Notes: generated by a model not told the origin, from the letters alone. A DNA stretch of 64,000 nucleotides from Naegleria gruberi (GCA_000004985.1 GG738899.1); one strand, 5' to 3'; positions 6,702 to 64,000 are shown, counted from the stretch's first letter. A program made the numbers and translations.

Positions 6702-6959
6702 TTTTTTTAATTTAATTATTTAATAATATTCCTGATGAAGAATTCTTCTTTAATTAATCAATTAATAACCATCATCACATCGGATTCGATATTTGTATTA
6801 TTGTTCTATATTTTGATGATGAGCAATACGAGGAAGAGACTAATAGTGCTTGCCTCCAAAATATGTAACAGTAATAAATTTAAGGTTTGGCGCCCAATTT
6901 TGAATCATCAAAAAAAATAGGAAAAAACACATCAAAGCCTTATTGCTTTGTTTTAAAAC

Positions 6960-21810: not shown

Positions 21811-23175
21811 TCAATAAATTAAAATCCAAACATTTCCATCTATACCTATTTCACATTTGAATTTAATAGACGTCAATTGTCTCTTATCCTTGTTGAATAC
21901 CTTGAATACAACTCCTTCAGATCCACATTCCAATACTGAAATGAAATCATACTCCTCCTTTAGATCTTTGTAATAAAAATTGAGAATTTCAACTGACTTT
22001 GCAAACTCTCCATGTAATTCGTTATATTTGCCGAGTATTTCTTTGTAATTATCGAAAGTTTTCTCATCTTCCAGCCATTTTGTGGCGAACAGCATCAACT
22101 GTTGGATTTCCTTTTCGGTATAAAATGATGTATCAAACTTTTCTGAAATATATTCCACAACGTACTTCAATTCTTTCACATTAGTTGAAACAGCAGGATT
22201 ATCTTCCATAAATTTATCCAATCTAAAACAAAATAAGTAATAATCAATACTGTCTTCTTGACTAACCTCAATGTTAGATTCTGAATTATTAACTCTCATT
22301 AATATTTGAAATATAATCAACTTTTCCACAAAGCTGGGTGAGTAGTTGCGGTTGAACTTGAACAGAGTCTTCTTTAGTTTTGGATTCATATTTGGCAATT
22401 CGATACAATAAAATAGTTCAGTTTCATCACTGAAATTTTGATATAACTCAATAATATTCCGTGATAATTTGGTTTGGAGATTGTAATGTTCAATAATTTG
22501 TGTTAGATCAGGTGAATATTCTCTTGCTTTTGGTAAATTTTGTTTTGATAATAAATAAATAAATTTGACATTTGACTTCAATGATTCGCTGGCATATATC
22601 AGAGAAAATGCATTTTTCTTAACAGATTCCAATACAATTTCTTCATCTTTTTTAAATATTTCATTGGTATAGTACAGAACTAATCCATTTTTCTTGACAG
22701 CTTCCAAAATAAATTCTCTATCTTTTCGTAACGATTCATTTGCAAAATTGAGTGAAAATTCATTCAATTCAATAGCTTCCAACAAAAACCCTCTATCCCT
22801 TCTCAATGTTGAATTGGCATAATTCAAAGAAAAGCTATACTTTCCAACAGCAGCCAACAATATCTCTCTATCTATCCTAAACGATTCGTCTACAATTTCA
22901 ATTACTGATCCGTCCTGTTGAACAGCTTCCAATGCCAATTCTCTATCCTTCTCCAAGTCAATGGCATATACCAGTGCAAATCCGTTTTTCCTAACTGCCA
23001 ACAATATAAATTCACGATCCTTCCGAAGTGAAATGTTTGCTTTCAAGAGACAAGAACAATCATTGCCAAAGGAGGGAATTTGTTGTAAAACGAATTGTTC
23101 ATTGGACTGGTAAAAGTTGGATTTATGAAAGTTAGTGATCAGAAAATGTTAAATACTAACCCATTGATTTTGCAT
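21811..23175 (-). CDS. DUF4116 repeat protein, 2 exons
   Basis: The track ORF starts at TTG. An upstream acceptor (ttttaccAG) at 23107-23109 joins a 15-nt first exon, 23161-23175 (ATGCAAAATCAATGG, MQNQW), through a 54-nt GTTAGT..CAG intron. The main exon, 21811-23106, carries 8 or more repeats of about 25 aa (KDREFILEAVKKNGLVLYYTNEIFKKD...), the DUF4116 pattern. Stop at 21811-21813. Confidence 0.55.
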
Positions 23176-34200: not shown

Positions 34201-36099
34201 CGAATTATTTCCAATAAGGAAGGAACAATTCGAACAATTGCTGATATCACAGCAGCCACCGACATGATTTCCACACAAAACAATACTCTCTACATCTCCA
34301 CCAATGAACAGATCATCAAGGCAACTCCACGCTGTGAAACAGGATTCCAATTAGTGAAACAAAACACTGAATGTGTTCCAATTTGTTATGGAATGTTTGA
34401 GAGTGGAATGGTTTGTTCAAGTCGTGGTGAATGCACTTCTCCAGATAATTGCAAATGTTGGAATGGATTATACACGGGAAAGGAATGTGAAATTCCAATT
34501 TGTTTTGGGATCTCTGCAAATGATCCTAATGTATGCTCGTATGGAAATGGAACTTGCATGATCAATAACAAGTGTCAATGTTTGGATGGATTTTATGGAG
34601 AAACTTGTCAATTTCCAATTTGTTTTTCTAAAATAATTGGAGAATCATGTGGTGGACCAAGCAGAGGAGCTTGCACCAATAAGGATGTTTGTAAATGTGG
34701 TCAATTTTACACTGGCGAACAATGCCAATACCGAATGTGTCAAGGAAAGAGTGAAATAGACAAATCTGTATGTAGTGGACATGGAAAATGCCAAGCTAAT
34801 GGAAGATGTGAATGTGACACTCTTTATATTGGAGATGATTGTTCCAATATGTCACAAATTTATGGATTGAGCATTGCTTCTGCACTCATTATTGTTATCC
34901 TCACTACAATGTTGGTAGTTTCTCTCATTTTGGGAGTAATCGTCTATAGGAAGAATAGGCGAGAGAAGAAAATAATCGAAACTGAACTCTCACTTGATGA
35001 AAGATTATTATCCTCAACTGATATATATGAAATGTCTCTATCTCACGGTTCATTAGCATCGCATGCTACTGTATCAACTGAAGATGCTTCTTCCTTCGTG
35101 ATTCCACTTCACAAGATTGGAATGGATAAACCAATTAAGGTTAGTTTCAAATTAATTATTCTATTAACAATTGAATCTTGATAAATTAATTTAACACAGA
35201 GACTTGGAGAAGGTGGAATGGGAAGTGTTTTTATGACCAAATTTAATGGAATGACAGTTGCTGTCAAGGTCTTTGATTTGAATAACTTGAATATTTCAGA
35301 GGAGGATTTCAAGAATGAAGCAATAGTATTAAGCAAACTTCGTCATCCAAATATTATTAACTTTTATGGAATTTCTACATCACCAACTAAACGATACATT
35401 ATCATGGAATGTTTGGATCAGAGCTTGGAGAAGGTAATTGCCAAATTGGAAATGAAACAATTATCTTTCACACTCGAACAAAAATTGAGAATGTTGCTGA
35501 ATATTGCTAATGGAATTGAATATTTGCATTTTTTGAAACCGAGGAGGATTATTCATCGCGATTTGAAAACAGCTAATATTCTACTAGACTCGAATGGAAA
35601 CTGCAAGGTTTGTGACTTTGGGTTGAGTAAATCCATTTCACAAGCAACTGTTTCCGCACTTACTAATCAATTGGGTACACATTTTTATATGGCTCCAGAA
35701 TTATTCGATATCAAACCGATTGATCCGACCTATGCCACATCAGTTGATATCTACAGTTTTTCTATTATCATGTGGCAATTACTATTCGAAATTAAGGATC
35801 CCTATCTCAGTAAATCTCCAGAAATATTGAGAAAGCTTGGAACTACCTCAATTCTTGAACAAGTAACTTCCTACCAATTGACCAAAATGATTTGTGAGAA
35901 CAACCACAGACCAAGCATTCCTTTCAATTCCATTGAATCATGCCATGAATGGTGTTTCGAATACATGCCTTCCTCCCAAGACGAATCTCCTCAAATCTTT
36001 GCACTTTCCCAATTAATCCAAGAATGTTGGCAAACTGATCCAAAACTCCGACCAAACATTGAACAAGTTATCCAACACCTTCAATCCCTACTCACCTAA
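31213..36099 (+). CDS. receptor-like protein kinase, paralog of 9142-14057: signal peptide, N-terminal domain, NHL repeats, EGF repeats, TM, TKL kinase (5 exons)
   Basis: Start at ATG 31213 (MMIRTMTLNFLCIALPLVALLFISS). Exons are 31213-32758, 32804-32884, 32932-33357, 33404-35139 and 35200-36099. Introns are 45-60 nt, GTTTGT/GTAAGT/GTATGT/GTTAGT to AG. Splicing restores NHL motifs (YIADTDNHRI, GYSGGDGGLA, YVADSFNHRI, IYIADSYNNRIR). There are 5-6 EGF repeats and the TM IASALIIVILTTMLVVSLILGVIVY. Kinase motifs are LGEGGMGSVF, AVK, HRDLKTANILLD, DFG and YMAPE. Joins track ORFs 31168, 32943, 33502 and 35218. Confidence 0.75.
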
Positions 36100-38179: not shown

Positions 38180-38258
38180 TTGGAAATATCGGACTTGAAC
38201 CGATGACCTACTATTGTAATTGCCAATAGCTTGCTCTCCCAAACTAAGCTAATTTCCA
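38180..38258 (-). tRNA. tRNA-like gene with perfect acceptor, D and T arms but an over-long anticodon arm (anticodon unresolved; possible very short intron or pseudogene)
   Basis: The minus strand reads TGGAAAT TA GCTT AGTTTGGGA GAGC A AGCTATTGGCAATTACAATAGT AGGTC ATCGG TTCAAGT CCGAT ATTTCCA A, then TATCTTTT (T-run terminator). The 7-bp acceptor and 5-bp T stem pair perfectly. The D-arm and variable loop are identical in pattern to tRNA-Phe-type genes. The region between position 26 and the variable loop is 22 nt instead of 17. It can form a 7-bp stem, GCTATTG/CAATAGT, with loop GCAATTA. Confidence 0.5.
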
Positions 38259-45664: not shown

Positions 45665-48139
45665 ATGTTAACTTCTAGTTCGAATAATAACAATACTACC
45701 TCTAGTACGAATGGTAGTACTAATAATAATTCATCATCATCAATAACGTCATCAGCAAGTACATCTATTTCTAATACAACAACGACATCTTCAATAATAA
45801 CTTCAAATAATAATAACAACAATGGAAGTACAACAACTGGTGGTAATAACGTTGGATCATCATCATTAGGAACTTTGAATAGTAGTTCTAATAATGCAAA
45901 TAACAATAATAATAATGGAGGATCATTGTTGACAACACCTACAATTGCAACTCCTGGTATGAATAACAATTTAATGTTGAATTCTGGAGGAGTTTCATTG
46001 TTAAGTATGGCTCAATCTCCACCTTCGAATAATTCTATTCTAAACTCTGGACTTCATTCGTCAAGTTTGTATGGCATTCAGAAAAATGCAACTGAAAACG
46101 TTCCTACTAATAGTACAGTAACAACAAGAGATGAAAATTCAGTGTATGGAAACTATTCGAAAATTGTTGAAAAATCAGAAACCTTTAGAACAGTGACATA
46201 TGCAAACGTTTCACGTTTGGCAACAGATTTTGGATTTTTAATTGATAACGAGGAGTTGAGTGACGTACAACTAAGAATTGGAAGTGGGAAGAATCAAAGA
46301 ACATTCCATTGTCATAAGGTTATATTATGTCAGAGATCTGAATATTTCAGAAATATGTTCCTTGTGAGTAGGGGAATGTTTTTAGAATCTGGAACACCTC
46401 TTTCAACAGGTACAAGTTTACCATTCTCTGGTAATTCAGAGGTGTTGACTAATTCGTTCGGCACTAGAATTTCAATTGTAGAAAAACCAAATATTACACC
46501 TATTGTTTTTGAAAAGGTATTACAATATATTTATACTGGAAGAGTTACGTTTACCACACAACTCAAACATAAGAAAATCAAGGATAAAACAGTGCATGTC
46601 ACTCACATGATTAGCACAGATGATATTGATAATGTCATTTCAATGTGTATGCATGTATTGGCAGCTGCTGATGAATTGATTTTGTTGGAACTCAAGAATT
46701 TCTGTGTTGACTATGTAAAGCAATACATTGATTCGGAGTCGGCCATTGTTCTATTGGACTTGGCATCAAAGTATGGTTCTGAGGATTTAATTGAAAATTG
46801 CTTTGACTTTATCAAGCATAATGCTAGAGAAGTGATTGCAAGTGAATCGTTACCTTTTGTATCCAAGCTCACTATGAAGACTTTCCTTGAGAGTGAATAT
46901 CTCGCTGTGGATGAAATTGAACTGTTTCGTGCCTTGTTGAGATGGGGTTTGTCACAAATTGAACACTGTCAAGATGAAGATGCTGTAGAGACCTACATTG
47001 CCAATGCAGATGATGAGGAACTTTCTGATGAAGAAGAGGAAATTGCTCTCGGCAGCAATGGTCTATCACCAGAGGATATTTCACACATTAAGGAGATACT
47101 ATCACAACCTCCAGAAGAGGAAGAGTTAATCTTCCGTAAAAAGCATATAGCCATGTTCAGAAAGAAACAATTACTGAATGATTACGAGAGCCCAAATGAT
47201 GGAGATGACACTGAGACAATTCCATTTGCTGTTGTCAAAAATCCACTGAGGGATGACATTAGTTTGCACACAAGACTCTCATTAGATCCTGTACCTCAAA
47301 ATAGACATCATACCGATTTGATTCAACTTGCAAATAGATTGAGGGATGAGGATAAACAACTATTAAGAGATGCTTGCATGGATTTAATTTCTTGCATTCG
47401 TTTCCCTCTCATGACAGCTCATCAATTGACAGATGTTGTGGAAATATTTAATATTGTGGAGGATTCACTATTGTTGGAAGCTTACAGGCATGTATGTGCA
47501 CCAGATAGAACACCACTTGTGAATTGCAAAAGAGCCCAGAAGAGAAAGGGAGCCACTGAAGGAGAGAATACTCACTTTGGAATTTCCACCATTTTGAAGA
47601 GTAAAAACAGGCAGGAACTTATCAAAATGGCTGGAGAAACCTCTATTACAAAAGGAAAAATTTGGACCTTGGCTTTCAAAGCTACAAAGGATGGATTTGA
47701 CAGTAATGTATTCCACAAAATGTGTGACCAGAAGGGACCCTCCATTCTTGTTTGCAGAACTACTGAGGGTTACATATTCGGTGGATACAATTCAGTGGAG
47801 TGGAATTCAAGTAATCAATGGCTTAAGGCAAATGATACTTTCCTCTTTAGTTTGATCAATCCATACAATGATGGTCCAAGAAAACTCAAAGTTAAGAATA
47901 CACAGAGAGCTGTCTATTGTCATGCAAGTTCAGGTCCATCATTTGGTGGAGGTACAAATCTCGTATTCGATCCCTATGATTTATATCTCGATTCCACCCT
48001 TAAACGAGGCCATACCAATGTTGGAGGTGCTTATTCAACATTCAGAGGAGGATTCAGAAGTGATGAAGCTCAAAAGAGTTTAGCAGGAAGCTTGAATGCA
48101 TGGATTTTAAACGAAGTTGAAGTTTATCTTCTCCAATAA
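45665..48139 (+). CDS. BTB/POZ-BACK-TLDc domain protein with long N-terminal Asn/Ser/Thr-rich region
   Basis: 824-aa single exon. The first 170 aa are N/S/T homopolymer-rich. The BTB is LSDVQLRIGSGKNQRTFHCHKVILCQRSEYFRNMF. A BACK-like region follows. An acidic linker is DDEELSDEEEE. The C-terminal TLDc-like domain is WTLAFKATKDGFDSNVFHKMCDQKGPSILVCRTTEGYIFGGYNSVEW...HASSGPSFGGGTNL. Confidence 0.6.
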   Translation: MLTSSSNNNNTTSSTNGSTNNNSSSSITSSASTSISNTTTTSSIITSNNNNNNGSTTTGGNNVGSSSLGTLNSSSNNANNNNNNGGSLLTTPTIATPGMNNNLMLNSGGVSLLSMAQSPPSNNSILNSGLHSSSLYGIQKNATENVPTNSTVTTRDENSVYGNYSKIVEKSETFRTVTYANVSRLATDFGFLIDNEELSDVQLRIGSGKNQRTFHCHKVILCQRSEYFRNMFLVSRGMFLESGTPLSTGTSLPFSGNSEVLTNSFGTRISIVEKPNITPIVFEKVLQYIYTGRVTFTTQLKHKKIKDKTVHVTHMISTDDIDNVISMCMHVLAAADELILLELKNFCVDYVKQYIDSESAIVLLDLASKYGSEDLIENCFDFIKHNAREVIASESLPFVSKLTMKTFLESEYLAVDEIELFRALLRWGLSQIEHCQDEDAVETYIANADDEELSDEEEEIALGSNGLSPEDISHIKEILSQPPEEEELIFRKKHIAMFRKKQLLNDYESPNDGDDTETIPFAVVKNPLRDDISLHTRLSLDPVPQNRHHTDLIQLANRLRDEDKQLLRDACMDLISCIRFPLMTAHQLTDVVEIFNIVEDSLLLEAYRHVCAPDRTPLVNCKRAQKRKGATEGENTHFGISTILKSKNRQELIKMAGETSITKGKIWTLAFKATKDGFDSNVFHKMCDQKGPSILVCRTTEGYIFGGYNSVEWNSSNQWLKANDTFLFSLINPYNDGPRKLKVKNTQRAVYCHASSGPSFGGGTNLVFDPYDLYLDSTLKRGHTNVGGAYSTFRGGFRSDEAQKSLAGSLNAWILNEVEVYLLQ

Positions 48140-48285: not shown

Positions 48286-50016
48286 ATGTCTGCAGGATCT
48301 TCATCGTTATTGGGACAACAGTTACCACGTAAACGTGTTTGTATTGTAGGTGCTGGGTGTAGTGGTTTGTGTGCCATTAAAGAATTGGCAGCATCCAATG
48401 ATCAAGTTTATGAAAATCAAGAATTTGCCATCAAATATCAAATTCCACTCTTTGATATTGCTTGCTATGAGGCTTCTAATGATATTGGAGGATTGTGGAG
48501 GTATTCAGAGAAGGAAACTGATTTCTCATCGGTTTATAAATCAACAGTGATCAATACAAGTAAGGAGTTGATGAGTTATTCGGATTTTCCAATTCCTGAT
48601 GAATTTCCAACTTTTCTTCCTCATGAAAAGGTTGTAGAATATTTGAAATTATATGCTGCCAAGTTTGAATTGGAACAATATATTGAATTTAATACTCGTG
48701 TGGAGAATATTGATCTTGTCAATTCTGGATCAACTGACAAGTATAAGGTTATTATTAGAAAGGGTGATCAGTTGAGTGAAGAAACTTTTGATCATATTAT
48801 GGTTTGTACGGGACATCACTCAACACCAAATATTGCAACATTTGAGGGATTGAAGGAAAATTTCAAAGGAAATGTCATTCACTCACATTCTTATAAGAAT
48901 CCATTCGATTCTGACATGTTCATGAATAAGAATGTGCTTGTAGTTGGAATTGGTAACAGTGGTGGTGATATTGCTGCAGAATTGGCTAAAAATGTGGCCA
49001 AACAAGTGATCTTATCAACCAGAAGAGGATCCTGGATTATACCAAGAGAACTACTTGGTGATCCACTTGATCATGTTCCAAGATTTGCATGGATGTTACC
49101 ACGTAGAGTTATTCAATATGCCAACGAGTTCTTATTAACTCTTGTGAATGGAGATTTGAAAAAATTCTCTAAATACTTGGCTCCTCGTCATCGATTCTTT
49201 GGTAGCCACCCAACTGTAAATAGTGAACTCATTTCCAAGATTAATAATGGTGTAGTTCGTGTAGTTCCAAATATTGTGAGATTTTCCAGAGATGGCCACA
49301 CTTGTAGATTTGAAAATGATGAAAATGCTTCGAATATTGATACAGTAGTTATTTGTACAGGATATAGAATTTCATTCCCATTCTTTAAGGATGGTTTCTT
49401 TGAGGATTGTTTCGATGAGAATAACAAGGTTTCACTATACAAGTACGTTTTTCATCCAAAACATGGAACTGGTATTGCATTCATTGGACTCATTCAACCA
49501 TTTGGTGCCATCATTCCAATATCTGAATTACAATCAAGAGTTGCTGTGAGAATGTTCAGAGGAGATTACAAACTTCCATCCGAATCCGAAATGAAACAAG
49601 ATGTCGAACAAAAACGTGAAGCAATGGCCTCGAGATATACTGAATCAAAGAGACACACTGTTCAAGTTGACTATCCACATTACACAGACGAATTGGCCGA
49701 CATTATTGGTGTGAAACCTCAATTTACAAAACATTTAATCAAAGACCCTCAATTAGGATCCTTACTTTTATCATCACCTGCCTATCCATGTACATACAGA
49801 ATTGAGAAGGAGACGAGTTTAATTACAAGTGAAAGTCATCAAAAGAAGGAACGAGAACAGGCCATCAATCTCATCAAACACTATAGAAAGCAAACGAGTA
49901 AGGATGAAACAAGTACTTTTGGAAAGATTTTGGCAATTATCAAGGCAGTTTTCTTCCTCTTATTCTTATTTGTGAAGGTAATCTTGTCTAAATTCATAGA
50001 TTGGGAGAAGGTGTAA
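48286..50016 (+). CDS. flavin-containing monooxygenase (FMO) with C-terminal membrane anchor
   Basis: 576-aa single exon. FAD motif VCIVGAGCSGLCA, GGLW, the FMO-identifying motif FKGNVIHSHSYKNP (FxGxxxHxxxY), and the NADPH motif VLVVGIGNSGGDIA are present. The C-terminal hydrophobic helix is ILAIIKAVFFLLFLFVKVIL. Confidence 0.8.
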   Translation: MSAGSSSLLGQQLPRKRVCIVGAGCSGLCAIKELAASNDQVYENQEFAIKYQIPLFDIACYEASNDIGGLWRYSEKETDFSSVYKSTVINTSKELMSYSDFPIPDEFPTFLPHEKVVEYLKLYAAKFELEQYIEFNTRVENIDLVNSGSTDKYKVIIRKGDQLSEETFDHIMVCTGHHSTPNIATFEGLKENFKGNVIHSHSYKNPFDSDMFMNKNVLVVGIGNSGGDIAAELAKNVAKQVILSTRRGSWIIPRELLGDPLDHVPRFAWMLPRRVIQYANEFLLTLVNGDLKKFSKYLAPRHRFFGSHPTVNSELISKINNGVVRVVPNIVRFSRDGHTCRFENDENASNIDTVVICTGYRISFPFFKDGFFEDCFDENNKVSLYKYVFHPKHGTGIAFIGLIQPFGAIIPISELQSRVAVRMFRGDYKLPSESEMKQDVEQKREAMASRYTESKRHTVQVDYPHYTDELADIIGVKPQFTKHLIKDPQLGSLLLSSPAYPCTYRIEKETSLITSESHQKKEREQAINLIKHYRKQTSKDETSTFGKILAIIKAVFFLLFLFVKVILSKFIDWEKV

Positions 50017-50116
50017 ACTGGTCTGGTCGAGTTTCGTCTTGGCAATTCTCTGTCCAATTATTAATAAAACAATAAATTATTAAAACGAAATGGCCATAAT
50101 CATTTGGAAAATTCGT

Positions 50117-50635
50117 CTATCCAGCCATTGCTGAAGATACATTGCTAAGGGTAATGATGGGCAAAGCTACGGCCACAATGGACATCAAAACGAGTAGTAA
50201 TATGGTAAGGAAGAAAAGAGCTAGACTAATCCTAGCACAGATTCTTGCTCTAAGGTTTTGTGAGTTTCGAAACTGAAAAATTGAAAACATTCGAATGTGA
50301 AATTGTGAAATAATTTAACATACCATGACATAGTTGGCGATCCAAACGACCAGAAAGAAGAAACCGATAATTAACAAGACGATTGCAGTGGAAGCTTCTT
50401 CACTGATTAATTCATCATCTACAAGCCATCGCAAATCTCCTTGTTGGTAGTAGAAATCTTCCGAAACTTTATCTTTCGAATAATTATTTTCATCAATTGG
50501 TGATTTATGATTTTGTTTAATTCTTGAATTATCATCGTAAAGACAAGACGCTGATGAAGACAATGATGAAGCAATATATTCTTGTTTACCCATTCCGCAA
50601 GGTTTCCAATCTTTTTTTCTGTGTTTCCATTCCAT
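50117..50635 (-). CDS. small two-TM membrane protein, 2 exons (hypothetical)
   Basis: Exon 1 on the minus strand is 50635-50324 (MEWKHRKKDWKPCG...AIVLLIIGFFFLVVWIANYVM). A 51-nt intron runs GTATGT at 50323 to TTTTTCAG at 50273. Exon 2 is 50272-50117 (FRNSQNLRARICARISLALFFLTILLLVLMSIVAVALPIITLSNVSSAMAG, stop TAG). The track ORF shows only exon 1 running into the intron. Confidence 0.45.
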
Positions 50636-52559
50636 TCAATGTTTCTTTAATGTATCTTATTTTACTTTTCTCAACATTTCAGTGTTACTTTTCCGAATCA
50701 TGAAATGTTAAAAAAGGAAAGCAAGGTGCCTCGTGATTTTTGCCTACTAATCATGAAAAGGTTTCGTTTAGTTTACAATAAATAATGGGTGGACAAGGTA
50801 TTGAAATGGGTGTTTCTCTAATGTTTCGTGATAGTATCCTTTCAGACTTTTCATTCTTCGCACATAATTTATGATCAAAACGGACATTAGTTGAAACATG
50901 TTAAGAAAGATTTTTCTGTCCACTCTCCTAATACCCAAAAAGTTGCAAGAGCAAGATCAAGGGTAAAACTGCATAATCACTGTGGAAATTACAACAAATA
51001 ATGTTTTGTGTAATCGTATCATGACTGTCTCCAACCTTAGAAATTCTATTATTGAAATCCAATTTTATCAACTAAGTTGGGCCAAATAGCTAATGACTAC
51101 AACCGCATAATTACACTCTCTTTTTGGAGAAACTCTCTCTTGTCCTAATACCAGCAAAGACTCCTCCACTTTAATCTCCACCACAACTTTACTAAGTTAA
51201 CGACATTATTTGTGACCTCCTGATATCTCGGATTCCTCTTAGCTTAGGATAGAATTTGATGGTGATGATGATAATTGTTTTCTTTCTCCATCGTTGCACT
51301 GGTAATGACTGGCTTAACAAGTCAAAGCCCAATAACATGGCCGTAGAAATTTACAAACAAGAATTCAACTGTCCCAATGCAAGGTTCACTATTACCTGGA
51401 ATACCTCTCTTCCTACCAGAGGAAGACGCAAGACTTAACATCAACTCTCAAACACAGAGTCTAAACTTAATGATTGAAGGCCTCATCTCTCAGGTCTAAA
51501 CGATTCAAGAGACGTTAACAATCAATTTTGAATTTTCTGTAATTTTTACTGTAAAACACAATGAATAAATAAAGAACTTTTAATACACTACTTGTAACAG
51601 TTCAACATAATGGAAACAGGTCAGTTAATCAATTATCATAAACATATATGGACCATTGATCAATTTGGCTGTAAATCACAATAATGAGGAAAACACTCAT
51701 CTGCACTTTGTAAAGTCCGAGTTGAAAGAAAGGATGAAGATATGATATTGCTATGAAAAGTTCCCGCTCAAATGTTCAGTTTTTAATTTTAAAAAATATC
51801 ATCACAACTAACCGCCATCATGATTCACTCTCATCCATTCCTTGGTGCAAGGGGAACATTGTTAAAAAGACACACAACAATGCAACAACAGCTGCATGAC
51901 GATTTTTCAGCTCGGAATAACAATGTCGTCATCCTCGGCCAAACCAAGGGATGTAATTATTGTTGGACAAATAGGATTCGTTGCATCACCTTCTAGCCTG
52001 GCACGAAATTAACAATCGAAGAAAATCATTACTTTTGAAGAGTGGGGAACCAATAGTAAGAGAAATGCAAAACCGTTAGTTAGATAACATGTTAGTTGAC
52101 AATCGGATTCAAATCATTCTTTTAAAGTTAAATTTTCGCATCAATGCGATGGTGAAGGACCCCAATCAAGAATAGCCTTCTCAAACAAGACATTTCAGTT
52201 GAATACTTCCTTTTATTACAACGGACTATAATTGAGTGTTCGTAATGAATAGAAAGGAAAGATACCACATTCTCGATATTACTCTCTAAAAGACCAGGTC
52301 ACCTTGTCTTTCTTCATGCAACGCACATTTCATTGAGTTTAATTTTTGGACCGAGTAAGGGTGAAAGGCACATCTTGGAACGTTAAGCTCGTCAGCATTT
52401 CATTCGGTTAGGTGTTTAATAGCGCGATAATTGTGTCTTACTATTTGAATTGGTGCTGCTGCATATTTTTCGATTTCAATCGTCGACAGACTTTCTCTTC
52501 CTCACATTAATAGCACAACACGAAAAAAAGACTCAGTTCAGTATTACGTCTGCACTCCA

Positions 52560-55500
52560 ATGGCACTGGTAAGTTTTATATGCGTTTAATGCGTGATTCA
52601 ATTTTGATAGAGAAACATTTCGAATGCAACAATAGTTAAATCAATTGTTGTTGCAGCAGTTGTTTTGGGTACTTTGATAGGTGCCCTAGTGATTACACTC
52701 GCTGTTACTCTAACAATCAAGTCTGATTTGAATGGCCAATTCACAGATTATGTTAAAGGATACAAGAATAGTGATATTGTAGTCCAACCAACAATTTCAA
52801 CAACATCTTCCAGTTCTCCTGCTCAATTAGACATTTCACAACAAGGATTAGAAAAGCCATATCATGGCTCCCTCAGACTAGGTTCAAACAATACCATCAT
52901 CTACCACTCTGAGAAGTATTTCTCAGGTAATGATACTTTTGAATATTATGTTACCTATGGCGAAAGCTCTTCTCTAAAAGTAAAGAACAGAGTATCCATT
53001 CTAGTTATGAATAGAGATCCAAAAGCTGTACCACTCACATTCGAAATACCAAAGAATTCTCATGATAACATCATTGATATCTTTGAAAAGAATGATAAGT
53101 TTGGAATGAAGGTTACTGATGACGATGATGATATTCTCGAGTTGGTTTCAGTATCCACTCCAAAATTGTCTGGCTCTGTTGTCTCCTCCAATAGTAAGCA
53201 AATTATCTACACTCCATGCACTAATTGTATTGGTGTAGATTCTTTTACATATACTGTTACTGATTTCAATTCAACAGTCTCCTCCACAATTACTATCAAC
53301 TTGGTCAATACTCCACCAAATGCTGTTAGAGATGATTTTACCATTAGCAAGAACAAGTTGGCAACTCTCAATGTCCTCTCCAATGATATTGATGAGAATC
53401 TTGACGAGTTGTACATCATCTCTGCTGGAACTGGTGAAGGTTCTATTGGTAGCGTTGTTGTTTCAACAGACAGAAAGTCATTGATCTATTATCCTAAAGC
53501 TGATACTAAGCCATACCTTGACGTTTTTAGTTATGTCATTACAGATGACTTGAATAATCCAAATTCAACCTCTACAGGTTCTATCCATGTTACAGTTACC
53601 AATTCACCACCTAATGCTCCTGAAACCAAACAAGTTTCAGTTTCCAAGAATTCAGCCAACTCTACCATTGATCTAACCTTTACTGATAATGATATTCTTG
53701 ATACTGTGAATGTTGAAATATTATCAACACCAAAGAGAGGTTACTTTTCTTTTGTTCAACAAAAGTATATTGATTCTGTTGATTATTTGGGTCAAATCTA
53801 TGTAGATGTTCTCAAGTTAAGATATCAATTATTGTACTCTCCAGAGAAAGGTGTTTCCTATTCTGAGAGTTTCAATGTAAAGGTAACAGATGGCTACTCA
53901 AGTTTGATTACAAGTATTATTATCAATGTGGTCAACACTCCTCCTATTTCTGTTAATGATACCATTACATGTACAAAGAATAATGAAGTAGTTGTTGACG
54001 TAATCTCCAATGACTATGATGTTGATGGTGATTCTATCAAGTTGTCTACCACCGATTGGGAGCCAAATAGTTTCAATGGTGGAGAAGTTTTCAGAACTGA
54101 TGACAGGTCAATAACATACAAAGCTCCTCAAGGGTTTGTTGGTATTGATACTGTAAGATATTACATTACTGATGGTGAATCAATTTCATATGGATTCTTG
54201 ACTGTCAATGTTCAAAGTGTAAAGCCGATTGCGGTGAATGATGTATTCTTTGTTCCAAAGGGACTCAAGACGTTCTTGAATGTATTGAACAATGACTACA
54301 GTCCAAGTAAGGATGAAATTTTGTTATCCTTTGCTACCATTAGAAGTGTTGAAGAATCCAATGTAGTACGTAGTCTCAGAAATAACGTCTATGGTTACGA
54401 ATACTCTGCCTCAGATGTGGAATATGTCGATACATTCAATTACAAGGTTGTTGATGTTTTTGGATTGACTTCCGACTCTGCAGTAGTAACTGTTAAGGTT
54501 GTAAACACTCCTCCAAAAGCTGTTGATGATGTCATTTCAGTTTCTTGGAATAGAGATGCTGTTTTGAATGTTCTCGAAAATGACTATGATGAAAATCCAA
54601 GTGATAATCAATTACTTGTTGTTAAGAGAACTATTCACGGAGAAAATCAAACAGTTCCTACTCCAGTCATCTTTGAATCAGGAAAGAAGTTACTCCTTTC
54701 CCCACCAAATGGCTTCACTGGTACTTTTGAATTTTTCTATGTTATTTCTGATACTTTTGATGAATCTAATGTGGCTAAAGTTACCGTTTCTATTGTAAAT
54801 CACCAACCAATTGCTAATGATGATCATGTTAGTGTTCATTGGAGAGATGGAATTTCTGTTATTAATGTTTTGCAAAATGATAGTGATGAAGATGGTGATA
54901 TCCTATTAATCAAGTCTTTCACTCAACCATCCAAAGGATTTGTGGTCAAGAAAGCACTCCCTGATGGAACTGAAGTATTTGAGTACTCTATTCTTGCTTC
55001 TGTAAAATTTGTCGGTATTGATAGTTTCCAATATGAAATTACAGATAATGGCAAGTCCTCAACAGCCACAGTCTATGTCAATGTTACCAACTTTTCTCCT
55101 GTAGCTAATGAAGATTCCTACAATGTACATTGGAACGCAGAGCAACAAGAGTATGAGATTCTCTCTAATGACTTTGATGGCGATTCTGATCCATTGAAAA
55201 TTGTTCCAAACTCTCTCATAATACCAAGTCAATTCAGAGGTCAAACTGAAATCAATGCTGATGGAACTGCAATCAAATTCAAACCTTCAGTTTCAGGTGT
55301 ATTTACTCTCACTTACAGAATTAGTGACACAGTAAGCCAATCATTGGACACTAAAGTTACTTTTAATGTGACCAACTTGGACAAACCGCTCCTGAGAACA
55401 ATCGAAAAGAACATCCATTGGACTATGAACCAACCAATTTCTATTCCTATCACAACTTTCACAAGAGATTCTGATGGTGATTTGCTTGTCATTTCTTCAG

Positions 55501-58500
55501 AGTTTGTGAAACAACCAACTAATGGTAGTATTGAGAGTGTTAATTATGGAGATGCAAATACAGTACCATCTCTTGTTTATAAGAAGAATCCAGGTTTCTT
55601 TGGTTCTGATATCATTCAAGTTTTATTGACTGATGGTTTAGACTCTGCCATTATTACTATCAAAGTCAATTCTATCAATCAAATTCCTCTTTGTCAAAGC
55701 ACTATAAAGGAATCAGTATTTTGGAAGGATTTACCATACGTTAGAAATAGTTTACTTATTGCAGGTGCACTCGATCAAGATAGCGAAGATATTGTCTATT
55801 TGAAGAGCGTTGCCAACAGCTTTAATGATATTTCTGTTAATGGTGATGAAATAACATTCTCTCCATTGAAGGGATTTGTTGAGGAAAGAAATGCTCAATT
55901 GATATTCTCTGACGGATTGGACATTTGTACAAGTATTTTGAAAATCAAGGTAAATGATTCAAAGCCTCAAGCAACCCCTACTATCAGTATGATTCACTGG
56001 TCTAAATCATCTTCCCTAATTGATGTCTTGTCTACTATTGTAGACGCTGATGGTGATTCATGTGATTTCAGTATCAAGTCACAATCTGACTACTCAATTG
56101 GAAGTGCCAGTATTGAATTGAATGCAAATACTAAATTTGTAAAGTGGACTGTATCTAATGATAAGAACTTAGGAGAATCCACTTTTGATATTGAATTCAC
56201 AGATGGTTATTTAACAGATACAGCAACTTATAGAGTCCAAGTTTACAACAATATTCCAATTGTTCCTCAAAAAACCATTGAAGTCCATTGGTCCAAATAT
56301 TTGAATGGTATCTCTATCAATTTGTTACAAGATATTATTGATAATGACGAACAAGATACTGTTTCAATCCCATTAAATTCTTGGGTAACAAGCAAGGTTG
56401 GAACTATCACAATGACTTCCGACAAGATTGCTCTCTATAAACCAAAGCAATCTTATTTGGGAGATGATGAAATTAATTTCACAGTAACTGATGGTTTGGC
56501 CATTGTCAATGTTACTTACAATATTAAGGTCATTAACAGAAAACCTGTTGCTGTTGATGATAATATTTCAGTTCACTGGAATGATACTAGTGTCGATATT
56601 AATGTTTTAGCCAATGACTATGATCCAGATCAAGAAGATACCATCTACATTGCTGCTTTACTCACAGAACCAAGTTCTGGAAGAGTAGAAAAGATTTCAA
56701 CCACAACTGTAAGATATTACTTACCTGAAGATCACTCTGTTTTGGGTGATTTTACTTTCCGTTACTCAGTCACTGATGGTACTGAGATTGCTGAAGCTAA
56801 TGTTACTGTAGATATTGTAAATAGAGATTATCCAATAGATGCCTCTATTTCAAGATCTATCCATTGGAGAGAAGCTGTTTCTGGACTTGCAATCAACATT
56901 GTTCCTTCCAAGAATGATCAAGATGGTGATTTAATAATTTTAAATATTGTTGAATCAAACAATCCTGGCATATTTAGCATTTCCAATGATGTTAACTTGC
57001 TCGTAAAGAGTGAAGAACCTCTCAAGGGAGACTTTAACGCCTCAGTTTCTATCTTTGATGGTATCTCTGTTGCTAATGCACATATTCAAACCTCAATTTA
57101 CAATCATGCTCCAACATCAAGGGATTTGTATTTCAACTTCCACTGGAGTACAATTAGTAGAGGAGTCTATATTGATCTAGTTCAACGATCAAATGATATT
57201 GACTTGCAAGATAAATCAAAGTTGAATATCAAGCATGCTCAAGTTATTGCTGGACCAGATGCTAATGCCGTAACCATTGTAAACAATACTCTTTACTTCA
57301 AGCCAAGCATTCTTGAAATTGGCAACACAACAATTGAGTTTATTATTAGTGATGGATTTGAAGATTCTGATTTACATACCATGATTATTGAAAGTAGAAG
57401 TGTTGTTGCTCAGAAAGCAGATCAATACTTTGATGCTCATTGGCGTTCGTTTGCTTTTGGTAATATCTATGGTCTCGATGAATCATTCAGTAATGAAGAA
57501 ATGATTACCTTATTGGATGTCATTCAACTTCCTGATCATGGAGGACAAGTATCCATTAGTACTATTAGAAACGTTACTTACTATCCTAAAGAAAACTTTG
57601 TTGGTACTGAAGTTTTTGCTGTTTCCTACACAACAGGCATTACCTCATCAAATATTACTGTTCATGTTAATGTCTATAACAATAATCCACAAGGTGCTCC
57701 AAAAGATTATGAAACTCACTGGAGAAATCCTGTTTTGATGAATATTCTTAATGGTGCCTTTGATGAAGATGAATACGATAGATTCTACTTGTTCCCAGAG
57801 TTGCTTGAAGAGTCAACAACAGGAACTTTGTCACAAATTGCTCCTGATGGTTCTGTAACCTTTACTCCAAATGTTACTTCTGGTTTTATTGGAACAACTA
57901 CCTTCTATTACAGAATCAATGATGGAAATAAGGTCTCTTTACCAACTCCTGTAACAATTACCATCAATAACAATCCACCAACATCACACACTAAAGTATT
58001 GAATATAATGTGGAAGAATTTCCTTGATGGTGTTGATTTTGACATTATTTCAACAAATCCAACAGACACTGATTCTGACTCTTTAGATATTCCATTCTTA
58101 TTTGTAAAGAGTTTCAATCAACCATTGCCTTTTGGAGAAGTTTCTCGTTTATCTTCATCCAGAGTCAAGGTTCAAGGTAGTTCATCGTTCCTAGGCTCAA
58201 CTTCATTCTCTTATGTTTTATCAGATGGTGCCATGAATGGTGATTCTACTGGTATTGTGGCCATTAACGTTTACAATAACAAACCAAACTTGACCCAAGA
58301 TACAATTACCACACACTGGAATGTCGACTTTATTGATATTGATGTTTTGTCCAACGATTTTGATATTGATAATAATCCTCTCTTGATTACAACTCTTAAG
58401 AATTATGCCTCACCTGACTCACAAATCATTTTGAATAATAAGGTGAGATATTATCCAAGAACTTGTTCTTCCTCTTCAGATAAATTTAACTATGTAGTTT

Positions 58501-61500
58501 CTGATGGCATTGAATCATCAGAGAGTGAAGTTAATGTAATCATTCTCAATAACAAACCAATTAGCAAGAATTATAATACCACCCATGTATGGCACAATGC
58601 TATTGGAGGTGTAGTTTTCGATATTGTCTCTGAATCAGTGGATGTCGATGGAGATTCTATCAGTATTGTTAAATTCAGCTCTATTCCTTCAGAACAAGGT
58701 ACATTAGAATTGACCAACAATAATAAGAGTCTAATCTATACTCCAAGACTTGGTTTTATTGGTAGTGTTGAAACAATTTCCTATGTAATTACCGATGGAA
58801 GAGATGAAGCTGTTGGTACTATTGATATTGAAATTACTAATAATTTCCCATCTTTGGGTGTTTCTGCAGTTTCTTCTCATTGGAGAAGTGCATTGGAAGG
58901 AACTTTATTCGATTTGAGCTCGAAGTTTATTGATACAGATGGCGATAATGTAATCTTGAAGGCTGTCATTCACCAAGCAGCTAAGGGAACTGTATCAATC
59001 ATTGATTCCAAGACAATCAAATATCAAAGCTCATTTTCTTTCAAGGGTAGTGATTCTTTCACTTTACAATTATCAGACGGATACAACCTTGTTACTGTTG
59101 ATTTGGAAATTGATGTTACTAACAATTTACCAACCTTGAGTGATATTTCTATCCAAACTCTTCACAGATTATCTGGAAATGTAATTATTCCATTGATTAA
59201 CAGAACCGATTCGTTGAAACCAAAAGATTTGGATATTCTCGACAATGACAAGCTTACCATTTCTGCTTTCACTCAACCAGGTATTGGAAGTGTTGTTTTT
59301 TCTGATGCTACACAACTTTCATTCACCTTCTCCAATGTTTTGGGTAATCTTTTGGAACAAACCTTCTCTTACACTGTGTCAGATGGATTGGAAAGTGCAT
59401 CTGCATCTATTACCATTCAAATTCTTAACAATCCTCCAGTTTTGGTTGATGCTGCAAAGAGTTTCCACTGGAGATCTATCTATGAAGAAGGTGGTTCAAT
59501 TGCTCTTGATATTTTGAAGGAATCTAATGCTTTAGATGCTGATGGCGACAATTTGTTCGTAAAGAGCTTTACTCAACCAAGTGTTGGTTCTGTATCTTCC
59601 TTGAATACTTCTCATGTCACATTTAGTCCTGTTGCATTTAAGGCATTTACAACAAGCTTCAAGTTTACTGTTTCAGATGGTGCTCAACAAGTTGAGAAAC
59701 AATTTGACATTTCTATTACAAACACCAATCCAAAGGCAGTTGATGACAGCTTGAACAAATTGTGGAGCAACAAGGTGTTCACTTTCTCTCCATTGGTTAA
59801 TGATTATGATGATAATAATGATCAAATCACTATCGTCCCAGAGTTGACTGAAAAAGTTTCAAGATTGCGATCAGCCTCAATTACTGTAAACAGTGACTTG
59901 AAAACTATTACCTATTCTGATACAGGTTCACTCACTACAGGATCTGATTCCTTCTCCTATACTATAACAGATGGTGTAGCAACAAGTTCTGCTATTGTTT
60001 CTATCACTTTTACTAATACCGAACCTTCAGTTGAATCATTTGAAGTTTCTGTCAAGTGGGATCAATCTATTACTTTTGATAATCTCCTTGGTAGATGTAA
60101 AGATCTTGATGGTGATGCATTGTCATTTGCTGGTATTACTCAAGGGATGTTAGGAACTACTCAATTGATTGACTCTCAAATCGGAACTTCTAAATATACA
60201 CCAAATCGTGCCTTGACCTATACCAACAAACCATCGACTGGTAATTGGACAGTTGTTGATACTATCCAATACTCATGCACAGATAGTGTTGTTCAAAAGG
60301 CAGGTACCATTTCAATCACAATTTACAATGAACCACCAAAAGGAAACGATATTTCCATCTCTCAAGTTAGAAATTACAATAATCCTCAAATTTCAATTGA
60401 TGGATATTCAATTTTATCTCAATCTAGTGATTCCAATGGAGATTCTATTACAATTACCAAAGTCAAACTCTATGATAACCAAAATATTGAAACTTCTGTT
60501 GTTTTACAAGCTGACAGTTCCATCAAATTCAAATATGGCAAGTCTTTCATTGGAATTCAAAAATTCTACTATACTATTTCAGATGGACAACTTGAAAACA
60601 CATACACATATTCTGTTGAAATATTGGGAAGCCCATCTTTGTGCGTCGATTATACCATTTCTACATTCAAAGACGCTTTGTCAACAGCATTCGGATCTGA
60701 CTTGAATTCCAAGTTGAATTTGGCATTTGATGGCGAGCCAATCTCTGTAACAGTTTCTGGAACCTCAACCTTGAGCTCTGTTGGTACTATTAGCACTGTT
60801 GATAATACCCTCACATATACTCCAAATAAGAGAAGATCCTGTATTAACAATGCTTGTTATGCCACCTACACAGCAATCAATGCTGCTGGTCAATCAGCCA
60901 CTTGTAAGATTATTGTCAATCAATCTAACCAAGCTCCAAATAATCCAAGCTATACCTACAAGTATTCTGCCAGAAGAGATGGAAACAACTTGATGATCTT
61001 TGATTATCTTGTTGATGCAGCTGTAACCGATCCTGATAGTACAGACAGCGTTTCTATTCAATCAATCTCAAGTCTTGGATCATGTTCTGATAAGGCCACT
61101 ATTTCTGTTAGTAATGGAAAGATTTCATTCACTAGACAAGCCACCTTCCTTGCTTCCACTTGTACATTCAACATTAAATTACAAGATGATGATGAATTAA
61201 CACCTGCTACAAGCATTGCCTCTATTACAGTTAATCCAACTATTTCTCCACCGTTGGCAGTTTCTGATAACATTATGGCCACTTTCAATTCCAACAGAGA
61301 TATTGATGTTTCTGTTTTGCTTCAAAATGATATTGATTTATTGGGAGGTAGCTTTACATTTGATGGTTTATTCTGCCCAGACGCAACTTACTGCAAGAAT
61401 GGTCTTCCAACCTTGTTGAATGCCAACACTGTTAGAATTCCTTTCAAGACTGGAAGTTGTGAAGCTGAAAAGGTTCAATACAGAATCAAGTCAACCCAAG

Positions 61501-64000
61501 ATGGATCTGTATCATATGCCAATATTATTATCAGATATGCTGGTTGTGTTTGCGAAAATATTTTCGACGTTGTTTTCATTGTTGATGGTTCTTATTCTAT
61601 TTCAGATGCCAATTGGGTCAGTTTGAAATCATTCTTCTCCAATATTACCCAAAGCTTGAACGTTGGTCCTTCTGCAACTAGAATTGGTATTGTTCAATAC
61701 AGTTCTGATGCAACTGTTGAATTAGATCTGAATAGTGGAACTTCGTCTAATGCTATTGTCAATCGTATTAGTAATATTGCTCAAAAGAAATCAGCAACTG
61801 CTTCAATTTATGGTATTGATAAGGCTGTTGAATTGATGGTCTCTCAAGGAAGAAGTGATGTTCCAAACAAGCTCTTTATTCACGTAACTGATGGTCAAAG
61901 TAATATGCCTTGCTCATGTGGTGAATGTAAGAATTATTATGGAACATTTGAAGGATGTAACTCTGTCTTATATCCTGGTAAATCGTGTGACTATTGCTCA
62001 TGGAATGATCCTCAAAGTCGTTGTGCACCTTGTTCAGATTACACAGAAAAATGTCAAAGAATTAACAAGTGGAGAAGTGGTAATAATGATAATCCTGAAC
62101 CATCTAAGAATTGGAATTATAGAATGATGGCTATTGGTATTGGATCTGGTGTCAATAATCCGTACGGTCTAGTTCAATTAGAAAAATCAAACTATGACCC
62201 ATCCCTCTTCCATTTATTCGATTGGAATGATTTGAATTATAAGATGATTGTTGATGAATCATGTGCTGCTTCTTATAACATTTATGGTGAAACTGCTCTC
62301 CAAAATACTACTTACGCTGATTCTCAAATTACAGTTCAATATTCTGGTAGAAGTGTTGTCAATCAATCAAATATTGCTAGTACAACATTTACCTATGTCT
62401 TGACAGCACCAACAAGCACAAAGCAAAAGAGTATCAAGAAATTCGTACTTTCCAATTCAATTTCTGATCCAGAATCATATGTTTCATACAACCCAACATT
62501 CCCTGTATTTGTTGGAACTGAATCCTTGACAAGCTTATTTGGATTTGTGTGGGACTCTGTTCCTTCCTCATCACTTGTTCCAATGGGATCATCTAAAACT
62601 GTTACCATTACTGTATGCGGTGATGTTCCTGAAAGTATGGTTTCTTTTGGTGTTGTTAGTGAATCCTTCATTACCTATTCAACAATTAAGGGACCAGCTA
62701 CTTCACTCTGTGTTGATAAGCCAGTTATTGATCCTAATACTCAATGTTTTGCTAAATCTGGAGCTTCATCATGTAGTGGACATGGTTTGTGTGTTCAACC
62801 TGATCTATGTCAATGTAATTCTGGATACACTGGAACTGAGTGTGAAACTCCTATTTGTTTCGATTTGACTGGTAACTTTGCATGCTCTGGTACTTCTAAG
62901 GGTACTTGTACTGGACCTAATACTTGCCAATGTCAAACTGGTTGGACTGGTACTGATTGTTCTATTCCAATTTGTTATGGTCTTGCAGCAAATAATGCTG
63001 GTTCTTGTAGTGGTTCCTCAAAAGGTACATGTATTTCTAAAGACACATGTCAATGCCAAACTGGATGGACTGGATCTGACTGTTCAGTTCCTATTTGTTA
63101 TTCACAGACTGGATCATCTGCCTGCTCAGGACCATCTCAAGGAAGTTGCATTTCTAAAGATACTTGCCAATGTCAAACTGGTTGGACTGGACCTGAATGC
63201 TCAATTCCAATCTGTTATGGATTAGCAGCAAATAATGCTGGTTCTTGTAGTGGTTCATCAAAGGGTACTTGTATTTCTAAGGATACATGCCAATGTCAAG
63301 ATGGTTGGACAGGATCAGATTGCTCAATTCCTATTTGCTTTGGTCGTCCACAAACTGATACATTATCTTGCTCTGGTTCCTCCAAGGGTACTTGTGTTTC
63401 AAAGAGCAGTTGTTCATGTCAAACTGGTTGGACAGGTTTCGATTGTTCCATTCCAATTTGTTATGGTGTGAATAGTACATCTACATCTGTTTGTGGTGGC
63501 TCCTCAAGAGGTTCCTGTACATCTAAGGATACCTGTCAATGCCAAACTGGATGGACTGGTTCTGATTGTACCGCTCCTGTCTGTTATGGAGCTTCTGGCA
63601 GTAGTGCTTGTGGTGGATCCACTAAGGGAACATGTACTGCACCTAATTCTTGCTCCTGTAAGACTGGTTGGACTGGTTCTGATTGTACAACTCCAATTTG
63701 TTTCTCAAATACTGGAACATCTGCTTGTGGTGGTTCCTCTAAGGGAACATGTACTGGTCCAGACACATGCCAATGCCAAACTGGTTGGACAGGATCAGAT
63801 TGCACAACCCCAATTTGTTATTCACAAACAGGATCTTCAGCTTGTGGTGGTTCAACTAAAGGTACTTGTACAGCTCCAAATACTTGTTCATGTCAATCAG
63901 GATGGTCTGGAAGTGACTGTACAACTCCTGTATGTCCAGGAAATTGTAATGGTAGAGGTTCATGTTCTGCACCAAATTCATGCAGTTGTAATAGTGGATG
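52560..64000 (+). CDS. giant extracellular adhesion-type protein, 3' partial (>3,790 codons in window): signal-anchor, 35 or more cadherin-like/Big_9-type repeats, VWA domain, tenascin-type EGF array
   Basis: Exon 1 is 52560-52568 (ATG GCA CTG). A 42-nt intron runs GTAAGT at 52569 to GATAG at 52610. Exon 2 starts at 52611, and its frame stays open to base 64000. No track ORF ends in this frame, and the open frame was checked by eye. The N-terminus MALRNISNATIVKSIVVAAVVLGTLIGALVITLAVTLTI is a signal anchor. Repeats of about 95-100 aa have the form (V)VNTPPxAVxDxxxVxWxxxxxIxVLxNDxDxDGDxLxI....F.Y.V.DG. The VWA block near 61560-62200 is DVVFIVDGSYSISDANW...IGIVQYSSDA. From about 62720 there are at least 12 C-rich EGF repeats (PICYGLAANNAGSCSGSSKGTCISKDTCQCQTGWTGSDCS). 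Confidence 0.7.
53290..60360 (+). repeat. array of diverged tandem coding repeats of about 290-300 bp (cadherin-like/Big_9 Ig-fold modules) inside the giant gene
   Basis: Periodic recurrence of VNTPP/VYNN(K/N)P, xDD..xVHW, (V)L(S/A)NDYD(V/P)DGD and ..TDG motifs every 95-100 codons. Copies are diverged at DNA level, so there is no recent homogenisation. Confidence 0.6.
62720..64000 (+). repeat. tandem EGF-module coding repeats of about 96-105 bp at the 3' end of the window, continuing beyond
   Basis: Repeated ccaatttgttatgg...ggttcttgtagtggttc(c/a)tcaaa(a/g)gg(t)ac(a/t)tgtatttctaa(a/g)ga(c/t)ac(a/t)tg(t/c)caatg(c/t)caa... units. Adjacent copies differ mainly at synonymous sites. The periodicity also generates the out-of-frame ORFs 62539, 62878, 63235 and 63584 in the track. 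Confidence 0.6.

Follow-up and report, generated by a model that had tools for sequence, protein, structure and literature searches.

The Sib proteins of Dictyostelium (SibA-E) are amoebal surface proteins in which bacterial-type adhesin repeats are combined with an extracellular VWA domain and a Cys-rich region, and they have been implicated in adhesion to substrates and particles (PMC9453864). They are type I proteins with four repeat regions, a C-terminal GxxxG transmembrane (TM) helix and a tail whose NPxY motif binds talin (PMC9453864). Reports of Sib proteins are confined to dictyostelids. In bacteria, the RTX adhesins follow a plan consisting of an N-terminal anchor, an extender of Ca2+-stiffened Ig-like domains and distal ligand-binding domains, which include a vWFA domain with an insert (PMC12077191, PMC7493085). 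Here we describe a giant gene at positions 52560 to 63998 of a 64,000-nucleotide (nt) stretch of Naegleria gruberi DNA (GCA_000004985.1 GG738899.1), the whole of which is referred to below as the window. The gene belongs to neither the Sib nor the RTX adhesin family, while the logic of its ectodomain is similar to both. We read its product as a giant type II-anchored fibrillar adhesin or ligand-capture receptor, the function being predicted from its domains, and as a member of an uncharacterised conserved heterolobosean family; we assign this reading a probability of roughly 0.6.

An earlier note on this DNA had proposed a single giant open frame from 52611 to the window end, beginning with a signal-anchor helix and continuing through 35 or more cadherin-like Big_9 repeats, a VWA domain and 12 or more tenascin-type EGF repeats. 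It regarded the order cadherin-like array, VWA, EGF as unusual in one eukaryotic protein of this size, raised the question of an origin resembling horizontal gene transfer (HGT), and named the product a candidate adhesion molecule with a possible role in multicellular aggregation. The features that we recognise, with amino acid (aa) positions counted along the open reading frame (ORF), are listed here together with their basis, which includes profile hidden Markov models (HMMs) and AlphaFold2 (AF2) models.

52560-52568, + strand: proposed exon 1, ATG GCA CTG (Met-Ala-Leu), from sequence inspection.
52569-52610, + strand: proposed 42-nt intron, GTAAGT...TAG, with an in-frame stop inside.
52611-63998, + strand: main exon, 3,796 codons, open at the window end.
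52641-52718 (aa 11-36), + strand: transmembrane helix, SIVVAAVVLGTLIGALVITLAVTLTI, from a Kyte-Doolittle scan.
52719-61220 (aa 37-2870), + strand: 29 cadherin-like Big_9 / tandem-95 repeats of ~98 aa each, from profiles, a self-built HMM and an AF2 model; read as an extender or stalk.
61221-61535 (aa 2871-2975), + strand: 30th repeat or neck, degenerate and Cys-containing, from a weak HMM match; conserved in homologues.
61566-62267 (aa 2986-3219), + strand: VWA domain, from Pfam, with a complete metal ion-dependent adhesion site (MIDAS; D2992, S2994, S2996, T3063, D3094).
61905-62102 (aa ~3099-3164), + strand: Cys-rich insertion inside the VWA fold, after the beta-strand bearing D3094, from the alignment pattern; lower model confidence.
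62331-62696 (aa ~3241-3362), + strand: post-VWA beta-sandwich, from an AF2 model; no Pfam family, conserved only in the Naegleria/Willaertia subgroup.
62745-63998, + strand: teneurin/tenascin-type EGF units of 39-41 aa with 6 Cys each, 10 complete and an 11th cut by the window end.

The open frame contains zero stops between 52611 and 63998 and continues past the window end, so that in this respect the earlier note was correct. At the base composition of the window a stop is expected every ~14 codons, the chance probability of 3,796 stop-free codons is ~1e-122, and the second-longest open frame of the window reaches 899 codons. Along the whole gene the base composition is flat and resembles that of the host. 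The GC content of the window is 35.1%, which equals the 35% published for N. gruberi. The first in-frame Met of the main frame lies at about aa 132, and starting there would remove the conserved TM anchor described below. The ATG-GCA-CTG exon and the 42-nt GT..AG intron are needed because the main frame is otherwise without a start codon; no alternative upstream first exon or in-frame ATG was found in 50014-52610 (2.6 kb), where we also searched for N-termini of the 'MPE..' kind seen in homologues. A two-exon model, with a 9-nt exon and a putative 42-nt intron, appears to be the simplest one. No metagenome contig contained an exact copy of a 35-mer taken from the end of the window. A scan with the single protein returned one metagenome locus, L001 (Ga0066256_1003907), which we rejected as a family member: it is a eukaryotic contig of 72% GC carrying a small unrelated VWA protein beside a SET-domain gene.

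The 26-residue N-terminal helix is the only hydrophobic or TM-like segment in the 3,799-residue window product (Kyte-Doolittle), and it is preceded by a stub of ~13 aa, MAL-RNISNATIVK. We examined 21 homologues, 12 of which include the N-terminal region. In all 12 a lead of 25-40 residues, in which NxSL[LIMV]K is conserved, is followed by a hydrophobic helix and then by repeats; the remaining nine begin further in. The signal-anchor helix suggested earlier thus has an equivalent in every homologue whose N-terminal region is included. Before the TM helix, a conserved and presumably cytoplasmic juxtamembrane motif G-[FL]-N-x-S-L-[LIMV]-K-x-x-T-x-x-Q is present in homologues P0007, P0011, P0016, P0062, P0067, P0088, P0096, P0116, P0117, P0140 and P0145, where it might act as a sorting or partner-binding signal. 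The window gene retains only 'NIS....K' of this motif, and its stub is shorter than those of the homologues. Because the helix is long and the segment before it is conserved, we favour a retained type II signal anchor over a cleaved signal peptide, which would give the protein an N-in, C-out orientation.

The helix is followed by a long array of cadherin-like repeats. Over the first ~2,900 residues Pfam recovers Big_9 (PF17963, E=3e-170, 554 bits with a cut-off of 23.6) as well as Cadherin_5 and Cadherin_4 (PF17892, PF17803), and the NCBIfam model for the bacterial tandem-95 repeat, NF012211, matches at 3.4e-129 and 421 bits (cut-off 90). In order to count the repeats we iterated an HMM on the protein's own repeats. 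This HMM tiles aa 37-2870 with 29 contiguous units, which together with the degenerate 30th gives fewer than the 35 or more repeats previously claimed. The AF2 model of repeats 13-15 (pLDDT 92.5) is all-beta and consists of three tandem beta-sandwiches. Compared with PDB structures by Foldseek, it matches cadherin-23 EC1-3, N-cadherin EC1-3 and EC1-4 and the cadherin-like domains of a bacterial GH107 enzyme, with E values from 1e-13 to 1e-9, and also LI-cadherin EC1-4; a PDB sequence search with the three repeats gave no match. Profiles and fold therefore agree on the cadherin-like nature of the repeats that the earlier note had recognised. The likeness to classical cadherins extends to the tandem beta-sandwich architecture and the structural match, but PF00028 is absent from the Pfam matches, a catenin-binding tail is missing, and the proteins differ in their topology and in the order of their domains.

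Mutual identity among the 29 repeats averages 21% and reaches 36% at most, and Tandem Repeats Finder detected no DNA-level repeat in the array. Judged by this divergence, the 29 repeats are old. Of these repeats, 19-26 retain the positions of the acidic DxDxD cluster and of the TDG motif, which suggests that the stalk domains may bind Ca2+ and be stiffened by it. Word-indexed protein searches with aa 2600-3450 and aa 2960-3385 yielded either three bacterial Big_9 proteins and no others, or no match at all. The best bacterial matches are 27-30% identical, which is the same level as that of the repeats among themselves. A bacterial origin of the repeats is plausible, since they fit the bacterial NCBIfam model; any transfer would have been ancient, and no donor could be recognised. 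For the HGT-like origin raised in the earlier note we found no sign of a recent event, as composition is uniform and the repeats have diverged to the average given above.

To investigate the family to which the gene belongs, we scanned 1.84 billion representative proteins exhaustively with HMMER, using aa 2871-3385 (VWA and flanks) as the query. Most matches are multi-VWA proteins aligned to the VWA core only. Approximately 20 proteins match in one stretch that begins with the query and takes in the VWA domain, reaching across the post-VWA sandwich in ~6 of them, and none of the representatives is more than 44% identical to the VWA/post-VWA region. Named members are Willaertia magna KAL9644294.1 (3,559 aa) and N. 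lovaniensis XP_044542534.1 (annotated as 'Tandem-95 repeat protein', 3,429 aa), and there are two N. gruberi paralogues, XP_002672240.1 and XP_002676992.1; the remaining members are metagenomic. BLASTP aligns the window product with the N. lovaniensis and Willaertia proteins end to end, at 38-39% identity over ~3,400 aa, and the self-built HMM counts 30 repeats in each of those two proteins. When repeats were compared individually with those of these two proteins (P0007 and P0008), a repeat at a given position best matched the repeat at the same position at 28 of 29 positions for each protein, with scores ~3x the median of other pairings. These positional best matches indicate that the array is ancient, that the ~30-domain stalk predates the split of Naegleria and Willaertia and that each position has been conserved individually.

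The colinear relatives terminate ~140 aa past the post-VWA domain, with no C-terminal TM segment. In N. lovaniensis this tail is a C-type lectin domain (Pfam Lectin_C, 9e-11), whereas in Willaertia and in the N. gruberi paralogues the lectin-like nature of the tail is a matter of sequence resemblance only. The other traits of the family, namely the N-terminal TM anchor, ~30 positionally conserved repeats and a VWA domain with a Cys-rich insert, are all present in the window gene. A C-type lectin or lectin-like module directly after the sandwich was not found there; an EGF array occupies that place, and a lectin module further 3' is possible. Literature searches gave no description of the family in Naegleria or in other Heterolobosea.

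One of the paralogues, P0011 (XP_002672240.1), shares its 331-kb scaffold with the FMO gene of the window, from which it is 40 accession numbers away, and has 22 repeats only. At aa ~1490-1740 it carries a ~250-aa non-repeat insertion ('...NVYWLVGAAGISGTFYGHVLSNG...'), which could be a real domain or an artefact of the gene model.

Beyond the stalk, Pfam places VWA (PF00092, 1.6e-23) at aa 2986-3099, and the profile match together with the intact MIDAS leaves the VWA domain of the earlier note well founded. The D-x-S-x-S...T...D residues of the MIDAS are invariant in 16 of 16 aligned family sequences, and the insert, with the pattern P-C-x-C-xx-C...C...C...C-P-C, is conserved across the same alignment. 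This conservation suggests that the domain may bind metal and ligand in a divalent-cation-dependent manner. The AF2 model of aa 2960-3385 (pLDDT 85.4, pTM 0.80) shows a VWA Rossmann fold that includes the insert and, after it, the beta-sandwich. Foldseek relates this model to ANTXR2 (VWA plus Ig-like domain), integrin alpha I, vWF A1-A3 and Toxoplasma MIC2, and also to the mussel byssus protein PTMP1. ANTXR2/CMG2, integrin alpha I and vWF A, which are the top matches, share a MIDAS-bearing VWA domain with the window product, and in ANTXR2 the VWA domain is likewise followed by an Ig-like sandwich. Sequence identity to these proteins is however only 13-21%, they have neither the Cys-rich insert nor a stalk, and ANTXR2 is a small type I receptor. 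The Integrin_beta family is not among the Pfam matches, and the VWA domain is closest to alpha-I and vWF-A structures.

From aa 3385 onwards the Pfam matches are EGF_TEN, EGF_Teneurin, EGF_2 and DUF7949 (PF25024 at 132 bits with a cut-off of 65, and PF23106 at 120 bits). The tenascin-type assignment made earlier was therefore sound, but the number of repeats visible falls short of the 12 or more claimed, as 10 are complete and an 11th is cut by the window end. The units fit teneurin and tenascin EGF profiles, while topology and domain order differ from those of the teneurin and tenascin proteins. The EGF units are 61-75% identical in DNA, with one pair at 85%, which indicates that this array is younger than the repeat array. 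The conserved beta-sandwich and the EGFs share one uninterrupted reading frame, and no EGF motif was found in any retrieved homologue. Among the sequences compared, the addition of EGF units is the only unusual element of the architecture; relatives carry a lectin-like module in the same place. The rest, a Big_9 array with VWA in a huge eukaryotic protein, is shared by ~20 members of a conserved heterolobosean family, and an ectodomain with bacterial-type repeats and VWA occurs in the Sib proteins as well.

The same teneurin-type EGF/DUF7949 units occur in three neighbouring ORFs, at 16567-19263 (- strand), 11448-13085 (+ strand) and 33391-35178 (+ strand). One of these combines GH44 with five EGFs, and the other two combine NHL repeats with EGFs. 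One NHL-EGF ORF, at 33391-35178, directly precedes a protein-kinase ORF at 35185-36096 (+ strand), and the two are probably one intron-split receptor kinase. The occurrence of one EGF type on GH44 and NHL ectodomains within the window suggests lineage-specific module shuffling.

Set against the described systems, the family to which the window gene belongs resembles the Sib proteins in its ectodomain parts and differs from the Sib descriptions in topology and repeat number. It is anchored N-terminally and has ~30 repeats, and its full-length members are without a C-terminal TM helix or tail. The sole NPxY in the window product is at aa 2778, that is, in the ectodomain. With bacterial RTX or 'tandem-95 repeat' adhesins (LapA, MpIBP, FrhA, AhLap) the product shares the design of anchor, extender and distal head, and its repeats match the bacterial model NF012211. 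It differs from them in that a TM helix, preceded by the 13-aa stub, replaces the periplasmic retention module, and no RTX nonapeptide GGxGxD occurs in 3,796 aa of the window product. The window gene is moreover eukaryotic, with an intron, EGF modules, 35 N-glycosylation sequons and eukaryotic neighbours. Finally, RTX extenders often consist of near-identical repeats, whereas the repeats of the window gene are diverged (21% identity).

These observations suggest a mechanism in which the ~13-aa cytoplasmic stub and the one TM helix would hold the protein in the plasma membrane, while 29-30 cadherin-like Big_9 domains would form a stalk, their acidic DxDxD and TDG motifs being typical of Ca2+-stiffened extenders. 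A cadherin-type domain is ~4.5 nm long, so that the predicted length of the stalk is on the order of 100-130 nm. Its far end would present a head composed of the MIDAS-VWA domain with the Cys-rich insert, the Ig-like sandwich and the EGF array (in relatives, the lectin-like module), and this head may depend on divalent cations to bind the substrate, prey or the surfaces of other cells. The Lectin_C end of the N. lovaniensis protein is consistent with a ligand-binding tip. An attachment or ligand-capture fibril, for the substrate or for bacterial prey, is favoured over an integrin-like mechanotransducer because the 13-aa stub gives talin-type coupling no handle. A surface role in adhesion or ligand binding, as the earlier note had put forward, is thus a reasonable inference from the domains.

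Several points weigh against this reading. The cytoplasmic stub is tiny and has no obvious cytoskeletal or signalling link, which makes an 'adhesion receptor' in the integrin sense doubtful; the N-terminal helix might be a cleaved signal, or the ectodomain might be shed. The case for Ca2+ binding consists of motifs and the case for the 42-nt intron of sequence. The 3' end of the gene is beyond the window and may encode another TM segment, a lectin module or additional domains. Apparently no public predicted protein covers the VWA part even though N. gruberi has been sequenced, and transcription is undocumented; literature searches gave no expression, localisation or binding data for the gene or for any family member.

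The leading alternative is a secreted or shed structural protein of the matrix, glycocalyx or cyst wall, in which the N-terminal helix would be only an export signal or the ectodomain would be released. VWA and EGF domains are typical of matrix proteins, the PDB matches include mussel byssus PTMP1 and vWF, and within the window EGF units of this type are also attached to secreted-type enzymes such as GH44; the small size of the cytoplasmic stub also fits. On the other hand, the hydrophobic segment is 26 residues long, and the lead of 25-40 aa with a conserved motif in the homologues does not resemble the n-region that a cleaved signal peptide would have, while position-specific conservation of a 30-domain stalk suits a fixed-length spacer. 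We therefore regard a matrix or coat protein as unlikely, although it is the principal rival.

A type I adhesion receptor of the Sib kind would require an unseen C-terminal GxxxG TM helix and an NPxY tail binding talin. The ectodomain of the window product is made of the same parts (VWA, a Cys-rich region and repeats of bacterial type), and the 3' end lies outside the window, where such a helix and tail could be encoded. The anchor is however N-terminal, P0007, P0008 and the N. gruberi paralogues end in lectin-like modules with no C-terminal TM segment or NPxY tail, and Sib proteins are reported from dictyostelids alone; this alternative is disfavoured and we consider it very improbable.

We would give equally little credit to the proposal that the frame is not one functional gene, whether as a pseudogene, an assembly chimera, a read-through of separate Big_9-VWA and EGF genes, or a product of bacterial contamination or recent HGT. 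It draws on the missing public model for the VWA region and on the lack of any homologue with an EGF array. Opposed to it are the length of the stop-free frame with its chance probability of ~1e-122, the continuity of the frame from the sandwich into the EGFs, a uniform and host-like composition, eukaryotic neighbours and the intron, and colinear orthologue-like proteins conserved over the whole length; in addition, the model of the neighbouring FMO gene is imperfect too.

A cell-cell adhesion molecule for multicellular aggregation, with which the domain content is compatible in terms of homophilic or heterophilic adhesion, is the least credible of all, since N. gruberi is a solitary amoeboflagellate with no aggregative stage and orthologue-like genes are present in the non-aggregative N. 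lovaniensis and Willaertia, although transient cell-cell contacts are possible.

The type II-anchored fibrillar adhesin or ligand-capture receptor remains our preferred reading, and it can be extended tentatively. The family might represent an ancient surface adhesin on the RTX plan, captured from bacteria or reinvented before the Naegleria/Willaertia split, with a fixed 30-domain stalk and a MIDAS-VWA head on which the tip has been swapped between lectin and EGF, and it might serve as the principal molecule of attachment to substrate and prey (in N. fowleri possibly to the host) with no integrin/talin link. This extended proposal is a possibility that we hold with low confidence as a whole.

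Little is understood of how Naegleria attaches to substrates, to prey and, in N. fowleri, to host tissue, and the canonical integrin machinery offers no obvious answer. A family of N-anchored fibrillar proteins of 2,200-3,600 aa or larger with a predicted metal-dependent VWA head therefore provides concrete candidate adhesins. The family also offers a very old tandem array in which ~30 units are individually conserved across genera, quite the reverse of bacterial adhesins, whose extenders are rapidly homogenised, as well as an apparent case of modular tip swapping, lectin vs EGF, upon a constant stalk. The gene is noteworthy in these respects; it is neither unique nor tied to multicellular aggregation.

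Public N. gruberi predictions apparently lack the giant gene or include only part of it, and an assembly gap is possible. Weak annotation suffices to explain the missing model, because the model of the adjacent FMO gene is also short (481 vs 576 aa). Taken together, the missing model for the VWA part and the truncated FMO model flag annotation gaps for giant repetitive genes. The FMO gene itself, at 48286-50013 (+ strand), is a single ORF of 576 aa without interruption, covered by Pfam over its full length. N. gruberi XP_002672200.1 (EFC39456.1, NAEGRDRAFT_72677; 481 aa) is 100% identical to it over 84% of the ORF, which suggests that the public model has been truncated or over-spliced, and ENA has a version of 576 aa (P0278). 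This identity speaks for N. gruberi and against a dictyostelid or Acrasis source, towards which the EGF-rich and TRAF-like neighbours and the introns of 9-95 bp reported for Acrasis kona had pointed.

The other neighbours in the window are a Kelch and BTB protein at 2-1882 (+ strand), a TRAF-like RING/B-box/MATH protein at 6957-9107 (+ strand), a BTB-BACK-TLDc protein at 45665-48136 (+ strand) and a DUF4116-repeat protein at 21814-23148 (- strand). Two tRNA genes, at 19572-19643 (- strand) and 38180-38258 (- strand), match Rfam RF00005 with 62 and 44 bits.

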